Shown here in pieces: positions 1-40,087 of a DNA stretch of 64,000 nt. Source of the stretch: an uncultured Actinomycetota bacterium (GTDB lineage: Bacteria; Actinomycetota; Actinomycetes; JAHEKZ01); NCBI GenBank assembly GCA_963848085.1, contig CAWKCE010000005.1, positions 146,282 through 210,281 of the forward strand, read 5' to 3'. The first letter of the stretch is position 1; every line of letters begins with the position of its first letter. The position numbers and the translations under genes were made by a program. The notes under the pieces were generated by a model. That model saw nothing but the letters and a program-made list of their open reading frames with translations, ran no database searches and was not told where the DNA came from.

Positions 1-995
1 ACGTACCCGGCATCGTCGTCGCCGAAAGCGTCGATGACGGCGCTCGGGTCGAACCCGGGCGGGCTGTCCTTCAGTGCGAGGCCGAGGCCGACCAGCTTGA
101 CCTTCACCTCGTCGATCGACTTGGCACCGAAGTTGCGGATGTCGAGCAGGTCCGCCTCGCTGCGGCCGACGAGCTCGCCGACGGTGTGGATGCCCTCGCG
201 CTTGAGGCAGTTGTACGACCGCACCGTGAGGTCGAGCTCCTCGATCGGCAGCGCCATGTCGGCTGCCATCGCGGCGTCAGCCGGCGACGGGCCCATGTCA
301 ATGCCCTCGGCCTCGACGTTGAGCTCCCGGAACAGGCCGAACAGCTCGACCAGCGTCTTGCCGGCACTCGCCATGGCGTCGCGCGGACGCATCGACGGCT
401 TGGACTCGACGTCGACCACCAGGCGGTCGAAGTCGGTGCGCTGCTCGACGCGGGTGGCCTCCACCTTGTAGCTCACCTTGAGCACCGGCGAGTAGATGGA
501 GTCGACCGGGATCCGGCCGATCTCCTGGCCCGGCTGCTTGTTGAGCTCGGCCCGGACGTAGCCCCGGCCGCGCTCGACCGTGAGCTCCATCTCGAGCTTG
601 CCCTTGCCGTTCAGCGTGGCCAGAACCAGCTCGGGGTTGTGGACCTCGACCCCTGCCGGCGGGGCGATGTCGGCTGCGGTGACAACACCGGGACCCTGCT
701 TGCGCAGGTACATGACGACCGGCTCGTCGTGCTCGGTGCTGACCACCAGCTCCTTGACGTTGAGAACCAGGTCAGTGACGTCTTCTTTCACCCCCGGGAC
801 GGTGGTGAACTCGTGAAGAACCCCGTCGATCCGGATCGAGGTGACGGCGGCACCCGGAATGGACGACAGGAGCGTGCGTCGCAGGGAGTTGCCGAGGGTG
901 TAGCCGAAGCCAGGCTCGAGTGGCTCGAGCACGAACCGCGACCGGAAGTCGCTGATGACATCTTCGGCCAGCATGGGCCGCTGAGCGATGAGCAA
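1..995 (-). CDS. rpoA: DNA-directed RNA polymerase alpha subunit, C-terminus runs off window start; TTG start at 993-995
   Basis: Reverse-strand translation gives [40 protein letters not shown]..., classic RpoA N-terminus; GGAGGA SD upstream; no stop inside window so absent from ORF track. Confidence 0.9.
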
Positions 996-1078
996 GGGAA
1001 TTCCTCCAGTTCCGGGCGCCCGCTATTTGACGCCGTGGACAGGTGCGGCCGTGCGACCGCGGGGCACTGCTGGGGCCG

Positions 1079-1705
1079 CTACTTCGAGTAGAGCTCGACG
1101 ATCAGCTGCTCCTGCACGAGGGTGTCGATCTGCTGCCGGACCGGCAGCGAGTGAACCAGGATGCGCATGCGGTGAGGCATGACCTCCAGCCATGCGGGCA
1201 CGGTGCGCTCGCCCGCCTCGGCGCGTGCCACCACGAACGGCGTCAGCTCGAGCGAGCTCTGCCGCACCTCGACGATGTCGCTGTCGGACACCCGGTAGGA
1301 GGGCACGTCGACCTTGGCGCCGTTCACCTGGATGTGGCCGTGCCGCACGAGCTGGCGGGCCATGTCACGGGACTTGCCGAAGCCGGCCCGGTAGACGACG
1401 TTGTCCAGGCGGCTCTCCAGGATGCGCAGCAGGTTGTCGCCCGTCTTGCCCTTCTTGCCGCTGGCCTCCTCGTAGTAGCCACGGAACTGCCGCTCGAAGA
1501 TGCCGTAGATCTGCTTGGCCTTCTGCTTCTCGCGCAGCTGCAGCAGGTACTCGCTGTCCTTGCTGCGCCCCCGGCCGTGCTGTCCGGGAGGGTAGGGCCG
1601 CATCTCGAACGGGCACTTGGCGGAGTCGCACTTGGAGCCCTTGAGGTACAGCTTGGTCTTGGCGCGCCGACACTTGCGGCAGTCCGCACCGGTATACCTG
1701 GCCAT
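1079..1705 (-). CDS. rpsD: 30S ribosomal protein S4
   Basis: MARYTGADCRKCRR... S4 signature; alpha-operon position. Confidence 0.96.
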   Translation of the reverse strand: MARYTGADCRKCRRAKTKLYLKGSKCDSAKCPFEMRPYPPGQHGRGRSKDSEYLLQLREKQKAKQIYGIFERQFRGYYEEASGKKGKTGDNLLRILESRLDNVVYRAGFGKSRDMARQLVRHGHIQVNGAKVDVPSYRVSDSDIVEVRQSSLELTPFVVARAEAGERTVPAWLEVMPHRMRILVHSLPVRQQIDTLVQEQLIVELYSK

Positions 1706-1735
1706 GATTCTCCTGCTTGCTTCAGTCGGGACGCG

Positions 1736-2137
1736 TCAGACGCGGCGGCGCTTGGGCGGGCGGCAGCCGTTGAACGGCGCTGGGGTGACGTCCTGGATGG
1801 ACCCGACCTCTAGGCCCGCGGCCTGGAGGGCTCGGATCGCCGTCTCACGCCCGGAGCCCGGGCCTTTGACGAAGACGTCGACCTTGCGCATGCCGTGCTC
1901 CTGCGCACGACGGGCGGCGGCCTCCGCAGTCATCTGGGCGGCGAACGGCGTCGACTTACGCGACCCCTTGAAACCCACCTGGCCGGCAGAAGCCCACGAG
2001 ATCACGGCACCACTGGGGTCCGTGATCGACACGATCGTGTTGTTGAACGTGCTCTTGATGTGAGCGTGCCCGTGGGCGACGTTCTTCTTCTCCTTGCGGC
2101 GCGGCTTCTTCGCGCCGGTCTTGCTCTTGGGTGGCAT
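1736..2137 (-). CDS. rpsK: 30S ribosomal protein S11
   Basis: ORF translation matches S11 ([15 protein letters not shown]...). Confidence 0.96.
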
Positions 2138-2215
2138 ACGCTGATTGCTCCTGGAGATCGTCGGTCCGCGACCCGCAGCTGCCGGACCCGGTGTCCGGCG
2201 GCGGACCTGCGGCTA

Positions 2216-2596
2216 CTACTTCTTGGTGACCTTCTTCTTACCGGCCACTGCCTTGCGCGGACCCTTGCGGCCGCGCGCGTTGGTGTGGGTGCGCTGCCCC
2301 CGGACGGGGAGTCCCCGGCGGTGACGCACACCCTCGTAGGAGCCGATCTCGACCTTGCGGCGGATGTCGGCCTGAACCTCGCGACGGAGGTCACCTTCGA
2401 GCTTGTAGTTCTCCTCGATCCAGTCACGGACCTTCACCAGCTGCTCGTCGGTGAGGTCCTTGGAGAGGAGGTCGGGGTCGACTCCGGTGGCGGCCAGTGT
2501 CGCCCGCGAGCGGGTACGGCCGATCCCGAAGATGTAGGTGAGGGCAACTTCCATGCGCTTGTCGCGCGGAAGGTCGACGCCCACGAGGCGTGCCAT
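2216..2596 (-). CDS. rpsM: 30S ribosomal protein S13 (true start internal to ORF-track entry)
   Basis: [14 protein letters not shown]... at Met46 of the 171-aa ORF; 126 aa. Confidence 0.95.
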
Positions 2597-2813
2597 GGTG
2601 CTCCTGGTGTTCGTGTCGAAGGTTTCGCGGCCGTACCGGTCCCACGTGTCTCGCGACGCGCGGGTCCCCGGCCTTCGTCCGGGGGTGGCGTCCCGTAACG
2701 GTCCGTTCCGGCGGAACCGGACAGATCGCACGGGGGTCGGGTACAGCCCTGAGGTCAGTGCTGGTCGTGCTCGTATTCAGTTGTCGACGCTGGCCGTGCG
2801 CACCGAGGTGCGC

Positions 2814-2927
2814 TCAGCCCTGCCGCTGCTTGTGGCGCAAGTTCTCACAGATGACCATGACCCGTCCGTGACGACGAATCACCTTGCACTTGTCGCAGAT
2901 CGCCTTGACGCTCGGCTGGACCTTCAT
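2814..2927 (-). CDS. rpmJ: 50S ribosomal protein L36
   Basis: Hand translation [37 protein letters not shown]; too short for ORF track. Confidence 0.93.
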
Positions 2928-2996
2928 CGTTGACTCCGTGACGTCGGGGTTCTCACGCACCTAGCGTCGCAAGACGCCGGCGTCGGGGGCTGGTGG

Positions 2997-3218
2997 CTAC
3001 TTGTACCGGTAGACGATCCGACCTCGCGTCAGGTCATACGGGCTGAGCTCCACCACCACGCGGTCCTCGGGGAGGATCCGGATGTAGTGCTGGCGCATCT
3101 TCCCGCTGATGTGCGCGAGGACCTTGTGGCCATTGGCGAGCTCGACCCGAAACATTGCGTTGGGCAAAGACTCGACCACGGTGCCCTCGATCTCAATGGC
3201 ACCTTCTTTCTTGGCCAT
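2997..3218 (-). CDS. infA: translation initiation factor IF-1
   Basis: [27 protein letters not shown]... within longer ORF; 73 aa. Confidence 0.95.
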
Positions 3219-3389
3219 GGTTCCTCTCGCACTCCTGCCGGAGTGTCGTGTCGTCGGGTGATCCGGTCCGGCCCTACCGCCGTCGAGCCACCCTGAGCCC
3301 ACGAGGGGCCAGCCGCAGGGCGTGCCGAGACGACGGCGTCGAGCCGACGCGGCAGTCTACGGGAGACAGCCGGGGGAAGGCCAATCCGC

Positions 3390-3512
3390 CGAGTGCCCAC
3401 CCCCAGGACCCCCCAGCACGCCGAGTGCACGCCCGCGCGGCCCCGCCACGACTTTCGGCTCCGGCCGTGCGCACTCGACGGGGCTGGGTGTCCGCGGACT
3501 GTGCACTCGGCG
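3390..3512. repeat. cluster of GCCGAGTGC / GTGCGCACTCGACGGGGCTGGGTGTCC palindromic motifs (REP-like) downstream of TauE-like gene
   Basis: Repeated GCCGAGTGC decamers at ~3393 and ~3428; near-copy of the 32-bp unit found at 4519-4605 occurs at 3466-3493. Confidence 0.5.
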
Positions 3513-4415
3513 TCAGGGGGTCGGGGCCGGGACGGGGGCGGCTGGCGCCTCGGCGCGCTCGCGGCGCTCGCGCCCACGGGCACGGCGGGCCACAACGGCG
3601 GTCCCGGTCACCATCGCCGCAAACCCCGCCCAGCCCAGTCCGGTCGGCACCTGGGTCACCGCCTGCAGGATCACCATCCCGTTGACTAGGAGGATCAGCC
3701 CGCCGACCATCGTGCCCATGGGGGCCTGGGGAAGCCGGCCGGCCAGCCGGGCAGCGATCGGGGCCACCACCATCCCTCCGGCAACCAGACCGAGGACCGG
3801 TACCCAAGGGATGTCCTCGTGCGCGGCGCCGGTGATGAAGCCGAGCGAGGCGGCGGCCGCGACGATGAACTCCGCAGCGTTGACCGAACCGACGACGCGG
3901 CGCGGCTCGTGCCGGGTCACGGTGAGCATCGACGGGGTGACCACCGGACCCCAGCCCCCGCCGCCGGTCGCGTCGACGAAGCCACCGAGGCCACCGATCG
4001 GGACCAGCCACCGCGCCGTGTGCCCGTGCCTGGGCATGGGAATCAGCCGGACCCCAAAGCCGAAGCGGGCGAAGATCACCAGCCCGAAGAAGAACAGCAG
4101 GCCCGCCATCCAGGCCTTGGCCGAGGCCAGGCTGAGCTCGGTGAGCACCACCGCGCCGACGAAGGCGCCGATCGCGCCGGGAAGCGCCAGCCGCCGGACG
4201 ACCGCCCAGTCGACGTTGCCGTGCCGCCAGTGCGCCAGGCCGCTCACCAGGGTCGTGGGGAGCTTGGCGACGTGGGTAGCGGCCGAAGCCGCCACGGGAG
4301 ACACGCCGAAGGCCAGCAGCAGCGTGGCCGACGTGACGCCGAAGCCCATCCCGAGCGTGCCGTCCACCAGCTGCGCGGCACCACCGGCAAGCGCAAAGGC
4401 GAGAAACCACGCCAT
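3513..4415 (-). CDS. TauE/SafE (DUF81) family sulfite/sulfonate exporter-like membrane protein
   Basis: Multi-TM Gly/Ala-rich protein typical of TauE/SafE; ATG at MAWFLAF preceded by GGAAAGAGGA SD. Confidence 0.8.
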   Translation of the reverse strand: MAWFLAFALAGGAAQLVDGTLGMGFGVTSATLLLAFGVSPVAASAATHVAKLPTTLVSGLAHWRHGNVDWAVVRRLALPGAIGAFVGAVVLTELSLASAKAWMAGLLFFFGLVIFARFGFGVRLIPMPRHGHTARWLVPIGGLGGFVDATGGGGWGPVVTPSMLTVTRHEPRRVVGSVNAAEFIVAAAASLGFITGAAHEDIPWVPVLGLVAGGMVVAPIAARLAGRLPQAPMGTMVGGLILLVNGMVILQAVTQVPTGLGWAGFAAMVTGTAVVARRARGRERRERAEAPAAPVPAPTP

Positions 4416-4518
4416 ATTGTCCTCTTTCCCCATCGACTTAGAAGGAAAAATATCAGCGCTACTGCGGTATTGCAATTTCCGAATCTGAATTCAGTCTTCT
4501 GTGCCGACCACGCCGGCG
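4416..4518 (-). promoter_or_regulatory. unusually AT-rich promoter/5'UTR stretch upstream of TauE-like gene
   Basis: Local AT-rich island in a high-GC genome (ttgcaataccgcagtagcgctgatatttttcc); strong SD before ATG. Confidence 0.4.
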
Positions 4519-4605
4519 GACTGCGCACTCGACGGGGCTGGGTGTCCCCCGAGTGCGCACTCGACGGGGCTGGGTGTCCCCCGAGTGCGCACTCGACGGG
4601 CTAGC
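4519..4605. repeat. 2.5 tandem copies of a 32-bp unit containing the 14-bp perfect palindrome CGAGTGCGCACTCG
   Basis: gagtgcgcactcgacggggctgggtgtccccc repeated directly; sits between map stop and TauE promoter. Confidence 0.7.
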
Positions 4606-5425
4606 GGTGGGCGGGGGTGGCGATGCCCATCGCGGCGAACCGCTCGGCGCCGCCGTCGTGGGCGGTCAGCACCCACGGCCCCTCCGGCGTCAGCGCGACG
4701 GTGTGCTCGAAGTGGGCCGCCCAGCCGCCATCCGCGGTGACGACGGTCCATTCGTCGTCCAGGAGGCGCGTCCGGCGGTCGCCCAGGATGACCATGGGCT
4801 CCACCGCGACCGCCATTCCGGCGACCAGGTGCGGGCCGTGGCCGGGCTGGCCGTAGTTCGGCACGCTGGGCTCCATGTGCATCTGGCTTCCGATGCCGTG
4901 CCCGACGTACTCCTCGACGATGCCGTAGTCGCCCCGTGCCCGGACCGTGGTCTCGACGGCGTGGCCGATGTCGCTGACCCGACCCCCCACCGTGGCGCGT
5001 GCCAGCCCCTGCCAGAGGGCATCCTCGGTCACTTCGGCGAGCGCGCGATGCTCATCGGCAACCTCACCCACACAGATCGTGACCGCCGCGTCGCCGTGCC
5101 AGCCGTCGACGATCGCTCCGCAGTCGACCGACACCAGGTCCCCGTCGTTGATCGTCCGGTCGCCGGGGATCCCGTGGACGATCTCCTCGTTCACCGACAC
5201 ACAGATGGTCGCGGGGTACCCGTGGTAGCCCAGGAAGGAGGGGGTGGCGCCGGCGCCCGAGATGGCGGAGGCCGCCAGGGCGTCCAGGTCCCGGGTCGTC
5301 ATCCCCGGACACGCCGACTGCCGCATCAGCTCGAGGGTGTCGGCCACCACCAGTCCGGCGGCCCGCATGCGCTCGACCTCGACGGCCGACTTGATCTCGA
5401 TCCGGTTCCGGCGGCGCAGGACCAC
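4601..5425 (-). CDS. map: methionine aminopeptidase type I (GTG start)
   Basis: MetAP motifs (VCVSVNEEIVHGIP, HGIGSQMHMEP). Confidence 0.93.
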   Translation of the reverse strand: MVLRRRNRIEIKSAVEVERMRAAGLVVADTLELMRQSACPGMTTRDLDALAASAISGAGATPSFLGYHGYPATICVSVNEEIVHGIPGDRTINDGDLVSVDCGAIVDGWHGDAAVTICVGEVADEHRALAEVTEDALWQGLARATVGGRVSDIGHAVETTVRARGDYGIVEEYVGHGIGSQMHMEPSVPNYGQPGHGPHLVAGMAVAVEPMVILGDRRTRLLDDEWTVVTADGGWAAHFEHTVALTPEGPWVLTAHDGGAERFAAMGIATPAHR

Positions 5426-5428
5426 GGC

Positions 5429-5992
5429 TCAGACCCCGAGCGCGGCGAGAACCCTGCTGGTGACCTCGGCCACGCTGCCCTCACCAGCCACGACACGCAG
5501 GAGCCCCACCCCGGCATAGTGCGCAACGATGGGGGCGGTCTCGGCGTCGTAGACGTCGAACCGGTGACGCACGACTTCCTCGGTGTCGTCGGAGCGGCCG
5601 TCTCGGGCCGCCCGCTCGAGAAGTCGCTGCATGACGACCCCACGGTCCACCGCCAACTCGACGACACCGTCGAGGCTCTCCTCACGGTCGGCCAGGACCC
5701 CGTCCAGGTAGGCCACCTGCGCCAGGTTGCGCGGGTATCCGTCCATGAGAAATCCGGGCAGTGCGTCCGGCTGTGCGAGCCGGTCCCGGACCATCGCGTT
5801 GGTCACCTCGTCGGGGACCAGCCGACCGGAGTCCAGGTATCGCTGAGCCTCCCGCCCGAGCTCGGTGCCGCCCGAGACGTTGCTGCGGAAGATCTCGCCG
5901 GTCGAGATGTGAGGCACGCCAAGGCGGCCTGCCACCGCGGTGGCCTGCGTGCCTTTGCCCGCTCCAGGCGGGCCGACCAGTATGAGGCGCAC
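5429..5992 (-). CDS. adk: adenylate kinase
   Basis: P-loop GPPGAGKGTQA; position after secY. Confidence 0.95.
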   Translation of the reverse strand: MRLILVGPPGAGKGTQATAVAGRLGVPHISTGEIFRSNVSGGTELGREAQRYLDSGRLVPDEVTNAMVRDRLAQPDALPGFLMDGYPRNLAQVAYLDGVLADREESLDGVVELAVDRGVVMQRLLERAARDGRSDDTEEVVRHRFDVYDAETAPIVAHYAGVGLLRVVAGEGSVAEVTSRVLAALGV

Positions 5993-7284
5993 TACCGAAG
6001 GAACCCTTCGTAGTTCCGCTGTTGAAGCTGGCTCTCGATCTGCTTGACGGTGTCGAGGCCCACTCCGACCATGATCAGGATGCTCGTCCCGCCAAAGATG
6101 AAGTTCTGGCCCTGCCCCAGGCTCGAGAAGGCCACCACCGGCAGGACTGCAATGGCACCCAGGTAGATGGCGCCGACCGAGGTCAGACGGGTGAGCACGT
6201 AGTCGAGGTACTCCGCGGTCGGCCGGCCGGCGCGGATGCCGGGGATGAAGCCGCCGTACTGCTTCATGTTGTCGGCGACTTCGTCAGGATTGAAGGTGAT
6301 CGCCACGTAGAAGAACGTGAAGAACACGATCAGGCCGAAGAACAACAAGGCGTAGTACGCCCCAGTGCCCCGCACCAGGTGGGTCTCGATCCACTGCGCC
6401 ACCGGGCCGGTGCTGCCCGTGATCGTGGTGAACAAGACCGGGAGGTACATCATCGACGAAGCGAAGATGACGGGGATGACGCCGGCCTGGTTGACCTTGA
6501 GCGGGATGTAGGTCGAGGTTCCGCCGTACATCCGACGACCGACCATCCGCTTGGCGTACTGAACTGGCACCCGCCGCTGTGCCTGCTCCATCAAGACCAC
6601 GAAGGCCACCACGAGGAGACCGATACCGAGAACGACGAACATGATCCAGTCGCCGCGGCTGGCACGGATCACGGTCAGCTGCCCGGGGAAGCCGGCGATG
6701 ATCGACGTGAAGATCAGCAGGGACATGCCGTTGCCGATGCCGCGGTCGGTGATGAGCTCGCCGAGCCACATGATCACGCCGGTACCGGCGCTCATCACCA
6801 TGATCATCGTGGCGATGGTCCACAGGCTCTCGTTCGGGATGATGTCCAGGTTGCAGCCCCGGATGAGGTTGCCGGACCGTGCGAGCGACACGATTCCCGT
6901 GGACTGCAGAACCGCGAGGCCGACGGTGAGGTACCGGGTGTACTGCGTGATCTTGGCTTGGCCGGCCTGACCCTCCTTCTTGAGGGTCTCCAGCCGGGGG
7001 ATCACCACGACGAGCAGCTGCAAGATGATGCTTGCCGTGATGTACGGCATGATCCCGAGCGCGAAGATCGACAGCTGGAGCAGCGCACCACCGCTGAACA
7101 GGTTGATCAGCGCGTAGAGGCTGTCTCCCTGGACCTGCCGGACACACTCCTGGACGGCGGGGTAGTCGACTCCCGGGGTCGGCACGAACGACCCGATCCG
7201 GTAAATGCCGATCATGGCCAGCATGAAGAGCAGCTTCTTCCGCAGGTCAGGCGTACGGAACGCCTGCGCAAACACGGACAGCAC
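5992..7284 (-). CDS. secY: preprotein translocase subunit SecY
   Basis: 10-TM SecY signature; spc operon position. Confidence 0.95.
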   Translation of the reverse strand: MLSVFAQAFRTPDLRKKLLFMLAMIGIYRIGSFVPTPGVDYPAVQECVRQVQGDSLYALINLFSGGALLQLSIFALGIMPYITASIILQLLVVVIPRLETLKKEGQAGQAKITQYTRYLTVGLAVLQSTGIVSLARSGNLIRGCNLDIIPNESLWTIATMIMVMSAGTGVIMWLGELITDRGIGNGMSLLIFTSIIAGFPGQLTVIRASRGDWIMFVVLGIGLLVVAFVVLMEQAQRRVPVQYAKRMVGRRMYGGTSTYIPLKVNQAGVIPVIFASSMMYLPVLFTTITGSTGPVAQWIETHLVRGTGAYYALLFFGLIVFFTFFYVAITFNPDEVADNMKQYGGFIPGIRAGRPTAEYLDYVLTRLTSVGAIYLGAIAVLPVVAFSSLGQGQNFIFGGTSILIMVGVGLDTVKQIESQLQQRNYEGFLR

Positions 7285-12502: not shown

Positions 12503-13447
12503 TCAGACCTCCGTCTCGGTCGCGTCGGTCGCCGGAGCCGCCTCAACGACCGGAGCCGCCTCAACAACGGGAGCCGCCTCAACGACCGGAGCCGCCTCAA
12601 CGACCGGAGCCGCCTCAGCAACGGGAGCCGCCTCAACGGGAGCCGCCTCAACGACCGGAGCCGCCTCGACGACCGGAGCCGCCTCGACCACCGACGTGGG
12701 CTCGGTCGTGGCGACCGGACCGGACGCCGGAGCGTCCTCCCTCGCCTTGCGCACCGGCCGGGCCGGCCGGTTCCGCTGCGAGATTCGGGCGGCAGCCGCG
12801 GCCGCCTCCCGCTCGGTGCGACTCCCGGTCACGTCACCCTTGTAGATCCACACCTTCACACCGATGCGGCCGAACGTGGTCCTGGCCTCGTAGAAGCCGT
12901 AGTCGATGTCGGCACGCAGCGTGTGCAGGGGAACCCGGCCCTCGCGGTAGAACTCGGTGCGAGACATCTCGGCGCCGCCCAGCCGCCCACCGACCTGGAC
13001 GCGGATGCCTTTGGCCCCGGCCTTCATGGCCGACTGCATGGCCTTGCGCATCGCGCGTCGGAAGGAGACCCGGCTGCTCAGCTGCTCGGCAACTCCCTGC
13101 GCGACCAGCTGAGCGTCGATCTCCGGGTTCTTCACCTCGAGGATGTTCAGCTGGACCTGCTTGCCGGTCAGCTGCTCGAGGTCTCCACGGATCCGGTCGG
13201 CCTCAGCGCCGCGACGCCCGATGACGATGCCCGGGCGAGCCGTGTGGATGTCGACCCGGACCCGGTCGCGGGTGCGCTCGATGTCGACGCGGCTGATGCC
13301 GGCCCGCTCCATGCCCTTGCTGAGCATGCGTCGGATCTCGACGTCTTCCTTGATGTAGTCCTTGTACAGCTTGTCGGCGTACCACCGGCTCGTGTACTCG
13401 GTGGTGATGCCCAGCCGAAACCCGTGCGGGTTGACCTTCTGACCCAC
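12503..13447 (-). CDS. rpsC: 30S ribosomal protein S3 with ~60-aa Ala/Pro/Val/Glu repeat C-terminal extension
   Basis: S3 core [14 protein letters not shown]...; C-terminus (EAAPVV)n encoded by 18-nt tandem repeats. Confidence 0.93.
12532..12692 (-). repeat. ~8 tandem 18-nt repeats inside rpsC 3' end (gcctcaacgaccggagcc units)
   Basis: Direct visual tandem repetition; in-frame EAAPVV peptide repeats. Confidence 0.8.
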
Positions 13448-32943: not shown

Positions 32944-33789
32944 TCAGAGCTTCTGGACTTGGTCGAACGAGAGCTCGACCGGGGTCTCCCGGCCGAAGAT
33001 GGAGACCAGGACCTTCAGCTTCTGCTGGTCGGCGTTGATCTCGTTGATGCTTGCGGGCAGCGTGGCGAAGGCGCCGTCGATGACGGTGACCGACTCCCCC
33101 ACCTCGAAGTCCACGATCTGGACCTCGCCGGGTGCGGTGACCCCCGGGGTCTTGGCCCGCTCCGGCTCGGTGAACAAGATGGTGAGCACCTCGTCGGTGG
33201 TCAGCGGGGTCGGCTGGTGGGCGTGACCCACGAAACCGGTCACACCGGGGGTGTGCCGGACCGCGGACCAGGACTCGTCGGTGAGGTCCATGCGGACCAG
33301 GACGTATCCGGGGAACTTGTTGCGCTTGATGTGCTTGCGCTGCCCGGACTTGATCTCGACGACCTCCTCCTGGGGCACCTGGACATCGTGGATCCAGTCC
33401 TCCAGGTTCAGCGACGACCGCCGGGTCTCCAGGTTGTGCTTCACCCGGTTCTCATATCCGGCGTAGGAGTGCACGACGTACCAGTCGCCCGGCAGCGTCA
33501 GCAGATGGTCGCGGAACTCGCCGCGCGGGTCCTCTTCGTCCTCGTCGTCCTCGTCGGACTCGGTGGTGTCGGCCTCCGCGGCCGGTGCCTCGGGAGCCTC
33601 ACCCTCGGTGACGTCGCCGTCGTCGGCCACGGTGGCCCCACCCTCGGTCGCAGCGCCGTCGTCGGCCACGGTGGCGTCAGCGTCCGCGACGGCATCCGCG
33701 GCGCCGTCGTCAGCCACGACGACCTCGACGTCAGTCACGTCGACTGTGGTGGCCTCGGCTGCGGCGCTGCCGGGTTCGGTGTCGGACAC
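32944..33789 (-). CDS. nusG: transcription termination/antitermination factor NusG with acidic N-terminal extension (GTG start)
   Basis: NGN domain [15 protein letters not shown] and KOW domain; GGGAGA SD. Confidence 0.93.
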
Positions 33790-34391: not shown

Positions 34392-35609
34392 ATGCCAGAC
34401 ATGTCATCGCCCCCCAGCCTGTCCGCCCGCGTCGCCGGGATCGCCGAGTCCGCCACCCTGGCGGTCGACGCCAAGGCCAAGGCGCTGCAGGCCGCCGGGC
34501 GCCCGGTCATCGGCTTCGGCGCCGGCGAGCCCGACTTCCCGACCCCGGGGTACATCGTGGAGGCCGCCGCGGCCGCTGCCCACGACCCCCGCTGGCACCG
34601 CTACACACCCGCCGCGGGGATCCCGGCGCTTCGGGAGGCGATTGCGGCCAAGACGCTGCGCGACTCCGGGCTGGCCGTCGGCGCCGACCAGGTCCTGGTC
34701 ACCAACGGCGGCAAACACGCCATCTTCAACGCCGTCGCCGCACTGGTGGACCCCGGCGACGAGGTCATCATCCAGGCGCCGTACTGGGTCACCTACCCGG
34801 AGGTGGTCCGGATCTTCGGCGGGGTGCCGGTGCCCGTGGTCACCGACGAGTCCAGTGGGTACCTCGCGACCGTCGAGCAGCTCGAGGCCGCCCGGACACC
34901 GCGCACCACGATGCTGATCTTCGTCTCACCGTCGAACCCGACGGGGGCCGTCTACCCGCCGGACCAGGTCGCCGCCATCGGGCGCTGGGCCGCGGAGCAC
35001 GGGCTGTGGGTTCTCACCGACGAGATCTACGAGCACCTCGTCTACGGGGAAGCTCAGTTCTCGTCACTCCCGGTTCTGGTGCCGGAGGCCGCCGAGCGGT
35101 GCATCGTGGTGAACGGCGTGGCCAAGACGTTCGCCATGACCGGCTGGCGGGTCGGTTGGATGATCGGCCCCAAGGCCGTGGTCAAGGGTGCCGCCAACCT
35201 GCAGTCCCACGCCACGTCGAACGTGAGCAACGTCTCCCAGGTGGCAGCGCTGACCGCGGTGACCGGCTCGTTGGACGCGGTGGCTGACATGCGGGTGGCG
35301 TTCGACCGGCGCCGACGGGCCATCGTGGCCATGCTGAACGCCATCGACGGTGTGACGTGCCCGGAGCCACAAGGGGCCTTCTACGCCTACCCGTCGGTGA
35401 AGGGGGTCCTCGGGCGCACCATCCGGGGCCGCACGCCTACGTCGTCGGCCGAGCTCGCCGACCTCGTGCTGGACGAGGCCGAGGTGGCAGTGGTCCCCGG
35501 TGAGGCCTTCGGCACGCCCGGCTACCTGCGGATGTCGTACGCGCTGGGCGACGACGACATCGCCGAGGGCGTCGGCCGCCTCGCGGCGCTCCTCGCCGAG
35601 TCCACCTGA
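34392..35609 (+). CDS. pyridoxal-phosphate-dependent aminotransferase, class I (aspartate aminotransferase-like); alternative ATG at 34401
   Basis: [35 protein letters not shown] motifs. Confidence 0.9.
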
Positions 35610-35616
35610 CCCCTAC

Positions 35617-35710
35617 CGCCGAGTGCGCACTCGCCGGACACCTTTCGTCGCCGAGTGTGCACCCGCAGGACACCTTTCGTCGCCGAGTGCACCGTGGCAG
35701 AGTGCGACCC
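35617..35710. repeat. three copies of a CGCCGAGTG(C/T)GCAC motif including the perfect palindrome CGAGTGCGCACTCG and direct repeat GGACACCTTTCGTCGCCGAGTG x2
   Basis: Seen directly in the convergent intergenic region between the aminotransferase and dsrE-like gene; same palindrome as at 4519-4605. Confidence 0.65.
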
Positions 35711-35798
35711 CGGTCGCAGGGCTCCCCCACGGAGGGCGACCGGGGCCGCGGCCCGCCCACCGGCTGCCAGTCGTCAGCCGCTGGACGGAGCTTGCGGG

Positions 35799-36329
35799 CT
35801 AGATGAACAGCAGCTGGGCGCCGTCGGTCATCTCGATGAAGTCCGAGGCGTTGATGATCGCCTCGACTCCGTCGTAGAGGTCCTCCTCGGTCAGCTTGTT
35901 CATGTCCGCGGACATCCGGCAGGCCCACAGGTGGCCGCCGGACGCCACGATCTGCTCGAGGAAGTCAGGAACCTCGGGAATCCCGAGGTCGACGAGCTGC
36001 TGCTTCATCATCTTGGTCGCCATGGCCTGCATGCCGGGGACGGGCGCGAGCGCCTGCGGCACCCGGACATCACCGATGGGCATGTGCATGGCGGTGTTGC
36101 CGACCGGGCTGAACTTCAGGTCGTGCATCCGGGACTTGGTGATCATGTCGAAGCCCCAGAACGTGAAGAACAGGTGCGTCTCAATGCCCTCGCCGAGAGC
36201 GGCGTTGCCCAGCACGAGTGCCGGGTAGGCCATGTCGAGGTTGCCCTTGCTGCAGATGATGGCGAGCTTGCGGTCGGTCTCCTCGTCGTCAAACGAGGGG
36301 ATCAGGGGGGTGTCGGTCTGCGTGGTCAT
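35799..36329 (-). CDS. DsrE/DsrF-like sulfur-relay family protein
   Basis: Small protein matching the DsrE/DsrF fold family; clustered with tusE/dsrC-like, DUF1641 and sqr. Confidence 0.65.
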   Translation of the reverse strand: MTTQTDTPLIPSFDDEETDRKLAIICSKGNLDMAYPALVLGNAALGEGIETHLFFTFWGFDMITKSRMHDLKFSPVGNTAMHMPIGDVRVPQALAPVPGMQAMATKMMKQQLVDLGIPEVPDFLEQIVASGGHLWACRMSADMNKLTEEDLYDGVEAIINASDFIEMTDGAQLLFI

Positions 36330-36357
36330 CGTGTCTTCTCCTCAGGATTGGTCGCGC

Positions 36358-36672
36358 TCACACGCAGCCGTGGGGCTTCGGGACACCCGCGATGTACGAC
36401 ATCTTCTTTGCGGGCTTCTTGGGGAACAGGGTGAACAGCTTCTTGGTGTCGACCCCGCCGGCGGTAGAGACCCGGCGAATGGTGGGCGTCTCGCCCTGCG
36501 CCTGGTAGTCCTCCCGGACGAACTTGATGACCTTCCAGTGGTCATCGGTCAGGTCGATGGCGATGTTTGCGGCGAGGACCTTCGCCAGGTCCTCATCCCA
36601 CTCGGCGTACTCGGTCATGAAGCCCTCGTCGTCGACGTGGATGTCGCGGCCGTTGATCGTGGTGACTGGCAT
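36358..36672 (-). CDS. TusE/DsrC-family sulfur-transfer protein (true start internal to 306-aa ORF)
   Basis: C-terminus ...YIAGVPKPHGCV matches the DsrC/TusE conserved C-terminal Cys motif; 104 aa. Confidence 0.7.
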   Translation of the reverse strand: MPVTTINGRDIHVDDEGFMTEYAEWDEDLAKVLAANIAIDLTDDHWKVIKFVREDYQAQGETPTIRRVSTAGGVDTKKLFTLFPKKPAKKMSYIAGVPKPHGCV

Positions 36673-36677
36673 CGTGC

Positions 36678-37388
36678 TTACCTTCCTTCGTGGGGTGAGT
36701 GCGAGTCGGCAGGCTTGTCCTCGCCGACCGAGCGAAGCATGGTCAGTGCGCGGCCGAGGCCGCGGCGGGTCTGCGGGTCGCGCATCTGCTTGAACAGCGC
36801 CAGCAGCGACGGCGGTTCGACGTGTTCGTCCTCGACCTCCTGCACGGTGACGGCGGTGCGCTGCAGGAGAGTCATGACCTCCGGCTGCGTCATCTCTTTG
36901 ACCGTGTTGAGGATCAAGACGACGTTGTCGCCGAGCGCCTCGACGTCCTCCTCCGTGAACGACGTCACGACGCGGTCGACAATCCCGGCGCCGCTGCGGG
37001 CGAACGCGAAGTAGCCCTTGTCGTCGAAGTCCTGGAGCGTGGCGGTGAGCGTGGCCATGGCCGGCGTCGCCAGCGGGATGACCTCGCTGCTCAGGTCGCT
37101 GAGCGACTGGAGCTGGGCGAGAAGGGCTTCCATCGTCGGGAGGGCACGCGCCATCGTGCGTCCGAAGCGGGCCAGGTCCTCGACGGTGACGTCGTCGCTG
37201 AGGTCCTCGAGCTCGCGGCTCACCGCAGCGAACGCCTCCGACGTGACCGGAGCCATGTCCTGCACGAGCTCCCCCCACCGCTCGCGCTGCTCGCGCTCGC
37301 GACGAAGCTCGTCCGCCATGACCTGAATCTGGGCGGTGAGGATGTCGAGCCGCTCGTCGGTCGTCACCGAAGTCGTGACGGTGGTCAT
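36678..37388 (-). CDS. DUF1641 domain protein (commonly paired with sulfide:quinone oxidoreductase)
   Basis: Glu/Leu-rich alpha-helical protein; gene context with sqr. Confidence 0.6.
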   Translation of the reverse strand: MTTVTTSVTTDERLDILTAQIQVMADELRREREQRERWGELVQDMAPVTSEAFAAVSRELEDLSDDVTVEDLARFGRTMARALPTMEALLAQLQSLSDLSSEVIPLATPAMATLTATLQDFDDKGYFAFARSGAGIVDRVVTSFTEEDVEALGDNVVLILNTVKEMTQPEVMTLLQRTAVTVQEVEDEHVEPPSLLALFKQMRDPQTRRGLGRALTMLRSVGEDKPADSHSPHEGR

Positions 37389-38632
37389 GACTCCGTGTCC
37401 TCGGGAATCTCTTTGCCGGCCATGGACATCAGGGCCGGAAGCGGAAGCTCCTTGCCCGGGAGCAGCACGTTCCAGTAGATCCAGCGGAACATGAGCTTGC
37501 CCCAGTGGTTGAGCTCGGTCTCCTTGAGCAGGCTGAATGGACCGATGCCCGGGAGCGGGTACTTGCCAGGCATGGGCTCGGTGTCGTAGTTGAAGTCGAT
37601 GAGCATGCCCTTGCCGTCGCCAGACTCGATGAAGCAGTTGGCGTGGCCGTCGAACCTCTGATCCATCGCCAGTCCGTCGATGTGACGCACGAAGTTGTGG
37701 GCGAAGATGTCGACGGCGAAGTGGGCGACCGAACCCGCCTTGGAGGCCGGGATGTTCGACGCGTCCCCGATGGCGAAGATGTTGTCGTGCTGGGTCGACA
37801 GGAAGGTCTCCTTGTCCACCTTGACGTAGTTGAGATCGTCGCCCAGGCCGGACCGGGCGACGAAGTCGGCGCCCATGTTGAGCGGGATGGTCACCAGGAG
37901 GTCGAACGGGACCTCGCGCTCGTCGTATGAGACGACGGTCTTCGCCTCAGGGTCGATGCGCTCAACCATGAAGTCGGACTCGAGCTCGACCTTGCGCTCA
38001 TCGAGCATCCCGCCGAGGTACCGGGACGCGATCGGCTTGGTGAACGCACCCGGGAGGGGGGTGACGTACACGATCTCCACCTGGTCGCGGATCCCGTGCT
38101 CACGGAAGAAGGAGTCGGCGAGGAACGTGAACTCCAGCGGAGCTACCGGGCACTTGATGGGCATGTCGACGATGTGGACGACCAGCCGGCCGCCCTCCCA
38201 CGTCTTCAGCTTCTCGCCGAGCGCGGTGGCACCCTCGAACGTGTAGAACTCGTGGATGCTCTTGCCCCACTCGCCCTCGTCCATGCCAGGAGTCTCGGCC
38301 GGCCGCGGCGTGGTCCCGCTGGCGATCACCAGCTGGTCATACAAGAGCTCTGTGCCGTCGGCCAGGACGACCTTGTTCTCGTCAGCGACGACACGGTCGA
38401 TCTCGCCGTGCAGGAGGTCGACGCCCTCGGGGATGAACCGCTTGGTGGGCTTGACCACCTCATCCGGCCGGTAGGCGCCGAACGGGATGAACAGATAGCC
38501 CGGCTGGTAGTAGTGGACGTCGCGCTGGTCGACCACGGTGATCTGCCACTCGTCGCGTGGCAGCCGGGGACGCAGCTTGTTGACGACCATGGTGCCGGCG
38601 GTTCCGCCGCCGAGTACGAGCAGGCGCTTCAT
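37385..38632 (-). CDS. sqr: sulfide:quinone oxidoreductase / FAD-dependent pyridine nucleotide-disulfide oxidoreductase
   Basis: MKRLLVLGGGTAGTMVVNKL Rossmann motif and SQR-like sequence; true start is Met71 of the ORF-track entry. Confidence 0.8.
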   Translation of the reverse strand: MKRLLVLGGGTAGTMVVNKLRPRLPRDEWQITVVDQRDVHYYQPGYLFIPFGAYRPDEVVKPTKRFIPEGVDLLHGEIDRVVADENKVVLADGTELLYDQLVIASGTTPRPAETPGMDEGEWGKSIHEFYTFEGATALGEKLKTWEGGRLVVHIVDMPIKCPVAPLEFTFLADSFFREHGIRDQVEIVYVTPLPGAFTKPIASRYLGGMLDERKVELESDFMVERIDPEAKTVVSYDEREVPFDLLVTIPLNMGADFVARSGLGDDLNYVKVDKETFLSTQHDNIFAIGDASNIPASKAGSVAHFAVDIFAHNFVRHIDGLAMDQRFDGHANCFIESGDGKGMLIDFNYDTEPMPGKYPLPGIGPFSLLKETELNHWGKLMFRWIYWNVLLPGKELPLPALMSMAGKEIPEDTES

Positions 38633-38811
38633 GCAGCCCTCCCAGTCGCTGTGCTCCCACCAGGACCGGAATCCGTGGGGGATGTCCTGGGGACCACAGT
38701 AGGTGCTCCACCGTATACCCCCCAGGGCATCTGGTCCTCGCTCCCCCGGGCCTTTGGTCCCCTCTCCGGTCCGGCGCCCCCCGGCGCGCCCGCCTGGCAA
38801 GATCTCCAGCC

Positions 38812-39855
38812 GTGACGCCCACCGGTCGGGACCTTCAGACACTGCCCAAGTCCCACCTGCACCTGCACTTCACCGGCGCCATGCGTCACCGCACGCTGAT
38901 TGAGCTGGCGCAGGCGCACGGTGTCCACCTTCCGGAGCCGCTCCGGTTGGAGCGGCTCCCACACCTTCACGCCACCGACGAGCGCGGCTGGTTCCGATTC
39001 CAGCGGCTGTACGACGTCGCCAGGTCCGTGCTGCGGGAGCCGGCTGACCTGCGTCGGCTGGTCCACGAGGTGGCTGAGGACGAGGTGGCCGACGGGTCGC
39101 GCTGGCTCGAGATCCAGATCGACCCCTCTGGTTACGCCGCCCAGTTCGACGGGCTGACGGCGACCCTGGAGATCGTGCTGGACGCCGCGCGAACGGCCAG
39201 TCTGGCCTCCGGCGTCGGTATCGGGGTGATCGTCGGGGCCAACCGGACGCGTCACCCGTTGGACGCCCGGACGCTCGCCCGGCTGGCCGCCCGATACGTG
39301 GACGACGGCGTCGTCGGCTTCGGCCTGGCCAACGACGAGCGGCACGGCCCCCCCGAGGACTTCGCCCGGGCCTTCCGGATCGCCCGCGAGGCCGGCCTGG
39401 CCTCCGTACCGCACGCCGGCGAGCTCGCCGGCGCCCCCAGCGTGCGCTCCGCCTTGGCGTCGCTGGCCGCGACGCGCATTGGACACGGCGTCCGCAGCGT
39501 CGAGGACCCGGAGGTCGTCGCGGAGCTGGCGTCGCACGGCGTGACGCTGGAGGTGTGCCCGGGGTCGAACATCGGGATGGGCGTCTACGAGCAGGCGGCG
39601 GACGTACCGCTCCGTCAGCTGTTCGACGCGGGGGTGCCGATCGCCTTGGGCGCGGACGACCCGCTGCTGTTCGGCTCCCGACTCGTCGACCAGTACCGCG
39701 TGGCGCGAGACGTGCACGGCTTCGACGACGCCGAGCTGGCCGAGCTGGCGCGGATGTCGGTCCGTGGCTCGATGGCCCCCGCCCCACTCCAAGACCAGCT
39801 TCTCGCCGACATCGACGCCTGGCTCACCACCCCCGCCGCCCCCACCACCCCTTAG
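38812..39855 (+). CDS. add: adenosine deaminase
   Basis: PKSHLHLHFTGAM matches the PKxELHxHLDG signature; metal-binding His/Asp later. Confidence 0.85.
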   Translation: MTPTGRDLQTLPKSHLHLHFTGAMRHRTLIELAQAHGVHLPEPLRLERLPHLHATDERGWFRFQRLYDVARSVLREPADLRRLVHEVAEDEVADGSRWLEIQIDPSGYAAQFDGLTATLEIVLDAARTASLASGVGIGVIVGANRTRHPLDARTLARLAARYVDDGVVGFGLANDERHGPPEDFARAFRIAREAGLASVPHAGELAGAPSVRSALASLAATRIGHGVRSVEDPEVVAELASHGVTLEVCPGSNIGMGVYEQAADVPLRQLFDAGVPIALGADDPLLFGSRLVDQYRVARDVHGFDDAELAELARMSVRGSMAPAPLQDQLLADIDAWLTTPAAPTTP

Positions 39856-39980: not shown

Positions 39981-40016
39981 GGGAGGGGGTGGTGAGGCTC
40001 GGCGCCGGGGAGGGCG

Positions 40017-40087
40017 GTCAGAGCTGGGAGGGGGTGGGGGTCAGAGCTGGGAGGGGGTGGGGGTCAGAGCGGGGGGAGGAGGGTGGG
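40017..40087. repeat. G-rich tandem repeat (23-mer GTCAGAGCTGGGAGGGGGTGGGG x ~2.5) with G-quadruplex potential
   Basis: Direct tandem repetition; GGGG tracts on + strand; overlaps murB stop region. Confidence 0.6.

Follow-up and report, generated by a model that had tools for sequence, protein, structure and literature searches.

A TauE-family gene in a variable slot between map and infA, and the stop-proximal tandem repeats on both of its sides, in an uncultured actinomycete

Introduction

How did a gene for a membrane permease come to lie between map and infA, and what did the tandem repeats on either side of it have to do with its position? The locus is part of a 64-kb stretch of DNA from an uncultured Actinomycetota bacterium (contig CAWKCE010000005.1, positions 146,282 to 210,281; hereafter the window), in which a gene of the TauE/SafE (YfcA) family, here called TauE (3513-4415, minus strand; 300 amino acids), is found between these two genes. 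An original prediction, made from the letters of the sequence, had taken the bracketing of TauE by one 32-bp repeat as a sign of insertion by repeat-mediated recombination or of regulation by a palindrome-binding factor. The observation behind it was confirmed; the interpretation was partly supported and failed on its main point, the insertion. We consider it probable that TauE is a native gene in a variable slot and that the repeats, which belong to a dispersed family located close after stop codons, arrived later.

Age of the permease gene at the map-infA junction

The gene order secY-adk-map-repeats-TauE-repeats-infA-rpmJ-rpsM was confirmed for the window. The methionine aminopeptidase gene map (4601-5425, minus strand; PF00557, E=1.6e-44) is the last of the secY-adk-map block and ends in a TAG codon at 4601-4603, and infA (IF-1; 2997-3218, minus strand; PF01176, E=2.8e-30) lies on the other side of TauE. 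The product of TauE matches PF01925 over virtually the whole domain (E=2e-40; 139.3 bits against a cut-off of 32.6; profile positions 2-233 of 237), which agrees with the family assignment that had been made beforehand.

We have taken 80 genome loci around related map genes (L001-L080) and placed adk, map, TauE, infA and rpsM on each of them. Closer relatives were added via the TauE protein, and the metagenome contig L143 via its match to positions 1-5581 of the window, to which it is 92.8% identical in nucleotides. In all six relatives that were recovered with the junction spanned, TauE is found between map and infA and in the same orientation. The protein identities amount to 99% (L081), 89% (L083), 78% (L002), 76% (L204) and 68% (L001), and to about 98% for L143 over the parts compared. 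A search with a repeat profile detected units in L081, L143 and L083 only, and none at all in L204, L002, L001 or anywhere else in L001-L080 (about 800 kb). Since L204, L002 and L001 carry TauE without repeats, the gene is older than the repeats, and the repeats cannot have inserted it. The presence of both gene and repeats at this position in all close relatives had been named beforehand as the outcome that would speak for an ancestral arrangement; it holds for the gene, and the repeats are confined to three of the six relatives.

The junction itself is far from constant. The original prediction had assumed that map and infA are normally contiguous, and indeed the gap between them is smaller than 400 bp in 18 of 61 related loci, but it measures 0.5-4.7 kb in the other 43, and in 19 further loci infA is not found within 5 kb of map. 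The cargo of the gap differs by lineage and comprises a luciferase-like monooxygenase, DUF1707, HxlR, DJ-1/AraC, a SpoU methylase, a hexapeptide transferase, an amidohydrolase, a GATase and a 3-dmu-9_3-mt-type protein. In L002 map and TauE are separated by an additional gene of the 3-dmu-9_3-mt/VOC type, which is encoded on the opposite strand (5950-6432 of that locus, minus strand) and indicates further turnover at the same junction. Judged by these gene orders, the map-infA junction is hypervariable and is a tolerated slot for lineage-specific genes, with TauE as its occupant in this clade. TauE is one more example of the boundary of the spc and alpha operons being used in this way. Orthologues of TauE occupy four other contexts (in Nocardioides, Aeromicrobium and others), where they are not accompanied by such repeats; among the 6040 homologues of the protein, those of Nocardioides and Aeromicrobium are 68-76% identical.

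Signs of a recent transfer were not encountered. The GC content at third codon positions (GC3) of TauE is 0.90, the same as that of the neighbouring genes, and no tRNA gene is present within about 30 kb of TauE. The interval between map and infA is entirely taken up by TauE, the repeats and a leader, and therefore leaves no room for an integrase gene. Altogether, none of the features of a genomic island or a site-specific insertion (att repeats, integrase, tRNA target, deviant composition) was found at TauE. The locus itself is ordinary: a native permease gene with its own predicted promoter in a variable slot, next to which a dispersed repeat arrived later.

Repeat clusters of the window

The window contains three intergenic repeat clusters, all of which start close after a stop codon. 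The first, array A (4521-4598, minus strand), begins 2 nt past the stop codon of map and consists of two full units (4567-4598 and 4535-4566) and a partial third one that is limited to the core (4521-4534). In the sense of the gene the unit reads CGTCGAGTGCGCACTCGGGGGACACCCAGCCC. Tandem Repeats Finder reported 2.5 copies with a period of 32 and 100% identity (4522-4600, score 158), precisely as had been noticed before, and the 12-mer GAGTGCGCACTC occurs four times where 0.39 occurrences are expected. The units had been described as palindromic over their full 32 bp; this applies to the 14-nt core CGAGTGCGCACTCG only and not to the remainder of the unit. The predicted RNA fold of array A has an energy of -57.8 kcal/mol (z=-2.6), with a centroid hairpin of -36 kcal/mol. 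The copy number is the same in L081 and L143 and at least 3 in L083.

Cluster B (3387-3512, both orientations) starts at the base directly after the TauE stop codon, so that TauE is bracketed by the same repeat on both sides. It comprises two sense units (3481-3512 and the degenerate 3449-3480) and two degenerate antisense units (3387-3418 and 3419-3450), the latter being three in number in L143 and L083. The downstream copies that had been reported are indeed there: a 46-nt copy (3467-3512) shares 87-89% identity with the units upstream, and the motif GCCGAGTGC recurs at 3388, 3420 and 3503. The cluster turns out, however, to be an inverted composite of sense and antisense units. It forms an imperfect inverted repeat of 126 nt with 42-nt arms that are 74% complementary, and is predicted to fold as a hairpin of about 125 nt (-88.1 kcal/mol, z=-2.8).

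The third cluster shows that the repeat is not specific to TauE, to which it had been tied. Array C (35617-35692, plus strand) consists of two copies of CGCCGAGTGCGCACTCGCCGGACACCTTTCGT and a partial core (period 32, 2.3 copies, 90% according to Tandem Repeats Finder). It lies 31 kb from TauE and follows an aspartate aminotransferase gene, beginning 7 nt past the stop codon, upstream of a conserved terminator hairpin that this gene shares with a convergent DsrE-like gene.

A dispersed family anchored on stop codons

We have scanned metagenome contigs for two cores at a spacing of 30-34 nt; the counts given in this section refer to the matches listed and are therefore minima. With redundancy removed, the scan yielded at least about 80 arrays, on contigs with a GC content of 62-75%. 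These arrays fall into three subfamilies with periods of 32-34 nt. The first (CCGCCGAGTGCACACCCCCAGGACACC.., 32 nt) is the type of the window, the second (..GAGTGCACACCTGGGTGAC.., 32 nt) is found in L090, L106, L128, L161, L169 and others, and the third (CGTCGAGTGTGCACTTCGTGCC.., 33-34 nt) in L086, L107, L152, L156, L171, L184 and L203. The second and third have the core CGAGTGYRCAC in common and differ in their 3' halves, and their arrays also begin near stop codons. Matches in low-GC contigs were unrelated satellites with the same 11-mer and were ignored.

The position relative to the upstream gene is strongly biased. Among the matches listed, 29 arrays are preceded by a confident open reading frame (ORF) on the same strand, some of the 29 being orthologous copies of one locus, and in 22 of them the array starts 4-16 nt past the stop codon. 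In six the distance is exactly 4 nt, in the form TGA|CGCC|GAGTG. On contigs too short for ORF calling, a TGA, TAG or TAA can be seen in front of many other arrays. The distance to convergent stop codons on the 3' side is more scattered (6-50 nt). The head-to-tail tandem is the basic arrangement, and at five loci, cluster B included, a sense array is followed by an antisense array. The family was not found in viral contigs, in which the scan gave a single, unrelated match, and full-text searches of the literature for the core 10-mers and for actinobacterial REP (repetitive extragenic palindromic) sequences or tandem repeats near stop codons yielded no description of it. The family is lineage-restricted, dispersed, intergenic and tandem, and it colonises the first nucleotides after stop codons.

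Gain, loss and concerted evolution

A comparison of orthologous sites revealed that arrays come and go. The array behind the aminotransferase gene is present in the window and in the 99% relative L215, present in a diverged form in L213 (90%) and absent from L211 and L212 (95% protein identity). In the orthologue without an array, CGCCGAGCGCGC and the native terminator hairpin are all that is present; in L211 (3716-3740, compared with 35607-35700 of the window) CGCCGAGCGCGC is retained next to AGAGTGCGG. This is what remains of a collapsed array or else the seed that gave rise to the array. A strong conserved hairpin (GCGACCCCGGTCGC...GCGACCGGGGCCGC; 35700-35750 in the window, 3745-3800 in L211) is located between the convergent aminotransferase and DsrE-like genes and is likely a bidirectional terminator. 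This native hairpin is there irrespective of the array, which is therefore not required for termination at the aminotransferase locus. An origin of the array-specific tails from target-site duplication was considered for this locus and found no support, the tails not being duplicated flanks.

Within a genome the units evolve in concert. Every array copy in L143 reads GAGTGCACACCCCGGGGACACC and every copy in the window reads GAGTGCGCACTCGGGGGACACC, with three substitutions common to all units of L143. The orthologous array of L143 (93% nucleotide identity) has the non-palindromic core GAGTGCACACCC in each of its copies, and in the corresponding array of L083 the palindrome is likewise not conserved.

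The map protein ends in ..TPAHR* in the window versus ..PA* in L143, L001 and L002. The stop codon of map in L143 is thus at the ancestral ..PA* position, which implies that the array was placed after the stop codon and did not truncate the protein. The idea that the element supplies a stop codon and thereby shortens the upstream protein was rejected on this ground, and also because the stop codon of TauE is conserved.

Predicted promoter and leader of TauE

The AT-rich stretch in front of TauE had been proposed to drive its expression, which is plausible. The GC content is 0.45-0.50 over 4400-4519 versus 0.72-0.79 in the flanks, the AT-rich part proper measuring about 95 bp (45-50% GC, compared with 68% for the window). 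Islands of this kind are normal for promoters in high-GC actinobacteria. The start codon ATG (4413-4415) is preceded by the Shine-Dalgarno sequence GAGGA (4420-4424). Positional conservation points to TTGCAA (4470-4475, minus strand) as the -35 hexamer and, 17 nt from it, to TATTTT (TAnnnT; 4447-4452, minus strand) as the -10 hexamer. In L143, L204, L002, L083 and L001 the -35 equivalents at the same position are TTGCAA, TTGCAT, TTGAAT or TTGCGC, and the -10 equivalents in the orthologues are TACCTT, TACTGT or, in L001, GACAGT. The -35 element, the 17-nt spacer and the -10 element keep an equal distance to the start codon in six orthologous loci, that is, in all the relatives with TauE at this position. 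The island is therefore plausibly a conserved sigma-70-type promoter followed by a short 5' leader.

The putative leader (4416-4449, minus strand) contains an inverted repeat, TTTTCC (4444-4449) and GGGGAAA (4425-4431), placed between the -10 hexamer and the Shine-Dalgarno sequence. Its arms co-vary in the relatives (TTCCCC/GGGGAA, TTTCCTA/TAGGAAA, TATTCC/GGAATA, TTCCCG/CGGGAA), and RNAalifold predicted a 6-bp stem for seven orthologous leaders, with three pairs changed on both sides and a weak energy of -5.3 kcal/mol. The inverted repeat may represent a hairpin at the 5' end of the mRNA or a small DNA operator. The covariance models of Rfam 15 gave no meaningful match in 2600-5000 of the window or in eight array-bearing loci.

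On the other side of TauE, cluster B is bounded by the upstream region of infA (3219-3386, minus strand), in which the alignments show a promoter-like ATTGGCC...TAGACT and a 5' leader of about 150 nt. This region is near-invariant in relatives (1260-1422 in L083, about 2225-2370 in L143) although the adjoining intergenic DNA has diverged, and it is conserved in part even in L001 and L002; Rfam contains no match. It could be an autoregulatory leader of infA.

Discussion

The findings are best accounted for by an order of events in which TauE was vertically inherited as a compositionally native, single-gene transcription unit at the boundary of the secY-adk-map and infA-rpmJ-rpsM blocks, where the AT-rich island would give the unit a sigma-70-type promoter of its own, followed by a short 5' leader. 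Once the gene was in place, a repeat family resembling REPs or mycobacterial interspersed repetitive units (MIRUs) would have colonised the 3' flank of map and that of TauE. In this particular strain the palindromic core would then give rise to hairpins in array A, 2 nt after the stop codon of map, and to the hairpin of about 125 nt in cluster B. Such hairpins may bring upstream transcripts to an end or stabilise them and, by analogy with the REPs of E. coli located within 15 nt of a stop codon, may slow terminating ribosomes. The repeats of this strain may also serve as hairpin terminators or insulators that separate map from the promoter of TauE, and TauE from that of infA. Taken over the whole family, a selfish or neutral minisatellite is more probable than an element that the cell requires.

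Several points weigh against this explanation. That two of the three clusters in 64 kb bracket one gene has to be taken as a coincidence, explained only by the fact that two 3' flanks happen to be adjacent, and the number of repeats in the source genome was counted over the window alone. The genes on the metagenome contigs were called with a GC3 heuristic (a long, same-strand ORF of high GC3 on the 5' side of the array), and the orientation of the arrays is not absolute, since antisense arrays exist, for instance beside infA. A strict scan for the sigma-70 consensus returned no promoter, TTGCAA being below the threshold, so that we infer the TauE promoter from the conservation of its position. 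The roles of the promoter, of the leader hairpin and of the terminators are all predictions from sequence.

What the arrays do, and how they came to be where they are, can be read in two further ways that are compatible with a native TauE and later repeats. It is possible, although we advance it with caution, that the arrays are selected 3'-end modules, i.e. factor-independent terminators or insulators, 3' stabilisers, or translation attenuators close to the stop codon. Their location 4-16 nt after stop codons, the bias towards the sense orientation, the strong hairpins predicted for this strain and the recurrent composites of sense and antisense units that yield long hairpins are all in line with this reading. 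The REPs of E. coli could serve as a precedent: according to PMC12306157 a large share of them is located no further than 15-20 nt from the stop codon upstream, and for those at 15 nt or less ribosome stalling was reported (Liang et al. 2015, cited there). However, over the family as a whole the arrays fold no better than shuffled sequences (79 arrays; median z -0.55, with 23% below -2), and the strong fold of the window array (z about -4.8 in the same test) is due to the strain-specific palindromic core. Moreover, a conserved terminator that was already in place follows the array at the aminotransferase locus, and a 95% relative does without this array. The hairpins are not followed by a U-tract, and a terminator scan of the locus produced no relevant terminator. 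The thought that the arrays might be C-rich loading sites for Rho was dropped, as the units of the window show no bias towards C and array orientations seemed to vary between co-directional gene pairs.

Alternatively, the units might constitute a non-autonomous mobile element that targets the nucleotides after stop codons and subsequently grows by slippage or unequal exchange, a scenario that we regard as rather unlikely in itself. A left boundary that is sharply defined by the stop codon at many independent loci, the filled and near-empty orthologous sites, the insertion exactly after the ancestral map stop codon (..PA*) and the narrow taxonomic distribution would fit such an element. On the other hand, neither a transposase nor a target-site duplication was identified in the 64 kb of genome and the short contigs, the array-specific tails at the aminotransferase locus are not duplicated flanks, the family is absent from viral contigs, and purifying selection against other positions could yield part of the bias. 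Drawing the two together, one may tentatively suppose that the 32-nt units belong to an undescribed actinomycete family whose founding copies are placed in a fixed orientation a few nucleotides after stop codons, through either a mobilising enzyme that acts near stop codons or selection for a function in termination or at the 3' end, and which has given rise to subfamilies of 32-34 nt across uncultured high-GC lineages.

The proposal that TauE is regulated by a palindrome-binding transcription factor, with the units as its operators at a spacing of three helical turns, seems very improbable to us. What speaks for it is that the core CGAGTGCGCACTCG of this strain, a palindrome of 14 bp without mismatch, recurs with a period of 32 bp just upstream of the predicted TauE promoter. 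Nevertheless, the palindrome is missing from the orthologous arrays of L143, where the core reads GAGTGCACACCC, and of L083, and its strain-specific nature argues against a palindrome-binding regulator, as does the median fold of the family. In addition, identical units follow TauE and the aminotransferase gene, relatives with the same predicted promoter lack the units, and the arrays are anchored on the upstream stop codon without a fixed distance to the promoter. Least credible of all is the scenario in which recombination between copies of the 32-bp repeat inserted TauE and left the repeats as scars or att-like sites: it could draw on the flanking of the gene on both sides and on the contiguity of map and infA in some relatives, but it is contradicted by the presence of TauE without any unit in L204, L002 and L001, by flanking copies that are no simple direct repeats (cluster B being sense plus antisense), by the same family after an unrelated aminotransferase gene, by the native composition together with the lack of a tRNA gene within about 30 kb and of room for an integrase gene, and by orthologues elsewhere that have no such repeats.

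Among known systems, the REPs and bacterial interspersed mosaic elements (BIMEs) of Enterobacteria and Pseudomonas (with GTAG and CGTC tags; PMC3733652) offer a close likeness. Like the units described here, they are short (20-40 bp) and rich in GC as well as extragenic and dispersed, they concentrate between genes that run co-directionally or convergently, often within about 15-20 nt of the stop codon that lies upstream, and their inverted clusters form long hairpins, as cluster B does. The CGYC at the 5' end of the family units also resembles the CGTC tag. Indeed, the three clusters of the window and the at least about 80 metagenome arrays are extragenic, dispersed and multi-copy. The unit is, however, no general stem-loop (median z -0.55 over 79 arrays), being palindromic only in the variant of this strain. 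Head-to-tail dimers are negligible among the tagged REPs (PMC3733652), whereas the family described here is mainly head-to-tail with a fixed period of 32 nt. The CGTC REPs have stems of 8-9 bp with loops of 4-5 nt and are not reported in Actinobacteria (PMC3733652).

The MIRUs (PMC3184786) are actinobacterial and intergenic, occur as direct tandem copies of variable number that are co-oriented with the flanking genes, abut or overlap the ends of adjacent ORFs, and show filled and empty orthologous sites; the present family shares this pattern. They differ in their length of 40-100 bp and in having ORFs of their own, whereas the present arrays contain 2-4 copies of a unit that measures 32-34 nt and whose length is no multiple of three; this comparison is one of descriptions. 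Moreover, MIRU units overlap neighbouring stop and start codons, whereas the arrays begin after the stop codon. CRISPR arrays likewise comprise tandem repeats of 30-36 nt upstream of a gene, but unique spacers and cas genes are missing here and the segments between the cores are near-identical within arrays and conserved between them. Type III toxin-antitoxin systems (ToxI-like) also have short tandem repeats (30-36 nt) directly upstream of a gene; in this case the downstream gene encodes the TauE permease rather than a ToxN/AbiEii-like endoribonuclease, and the units are found at unrelated loci too.

The repeat family is a modest side finding, similar to REPs and MIRUs, without a match in Rfam or a description found in the literature. 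Still, it is a clean example from actinobacteria of short tandem repeats that are tied to stop codons, evolve in concert and have orthologous sites both with and without an array. It could help to address the spread of REP- and MIRU-like sequences, and the question whether structures close to the stop codon modulate termination in high-GC bacteria, which have few canonical terminators. It is also a possible variable-number tandem repeat (VNTR) marker for strain typing in these uncultured lineages.

Neighbouring genes and other repeats in the window

All genes in the first 9 kb of the window are on the minus strand, including secY (5992-7284) and adk (5429-5992) before map, and rpmJ, rpsM, rpsK and rpsD after infA. 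With its full-length domain match and its typical size of about 300 amino acids, TauE resembles the TauE/SafE/YfcA (PF01925) anion permeases. It differs in that genes of a sulfonate or sulfite pathway are not adjacent to it, the neighbours being map and infA, and in that NCBIfam provides no equivalog or specific name; the orthologues elsewhere are also found beside unrelated genes. Genetic linkage that would suggest the export of sulfite or sulfoacetate was thus not seen in this neighbourhood.

A cluster of DsrE-like, DsrC (TusE)-like, HMP and Pyr_redox_2 (sulfide:quinone-reductase-like) genes at 35799-38842 is convergent to the aminotransferase gene and is kept in the relatives L211 and L213. 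This sulfur-metabolism cluster is 31 kb from the TauE-family permease gene. Other tandem repeats of the window are a 23-bp G-rich unit in 2.9 copies (GGGGTGGGGGTCAGAGCTGGGAG; 40007-40074) and a 39-bp unit in 2.1 copies (33596-33675). Finally, an 18-bp tandem repeat of 9.2 copies (12532-12693) encodes the (VVEAAP)n C-terminal tail of ribosomal protein S3, the gene of which is located at 12503-13447 on the minus strand.

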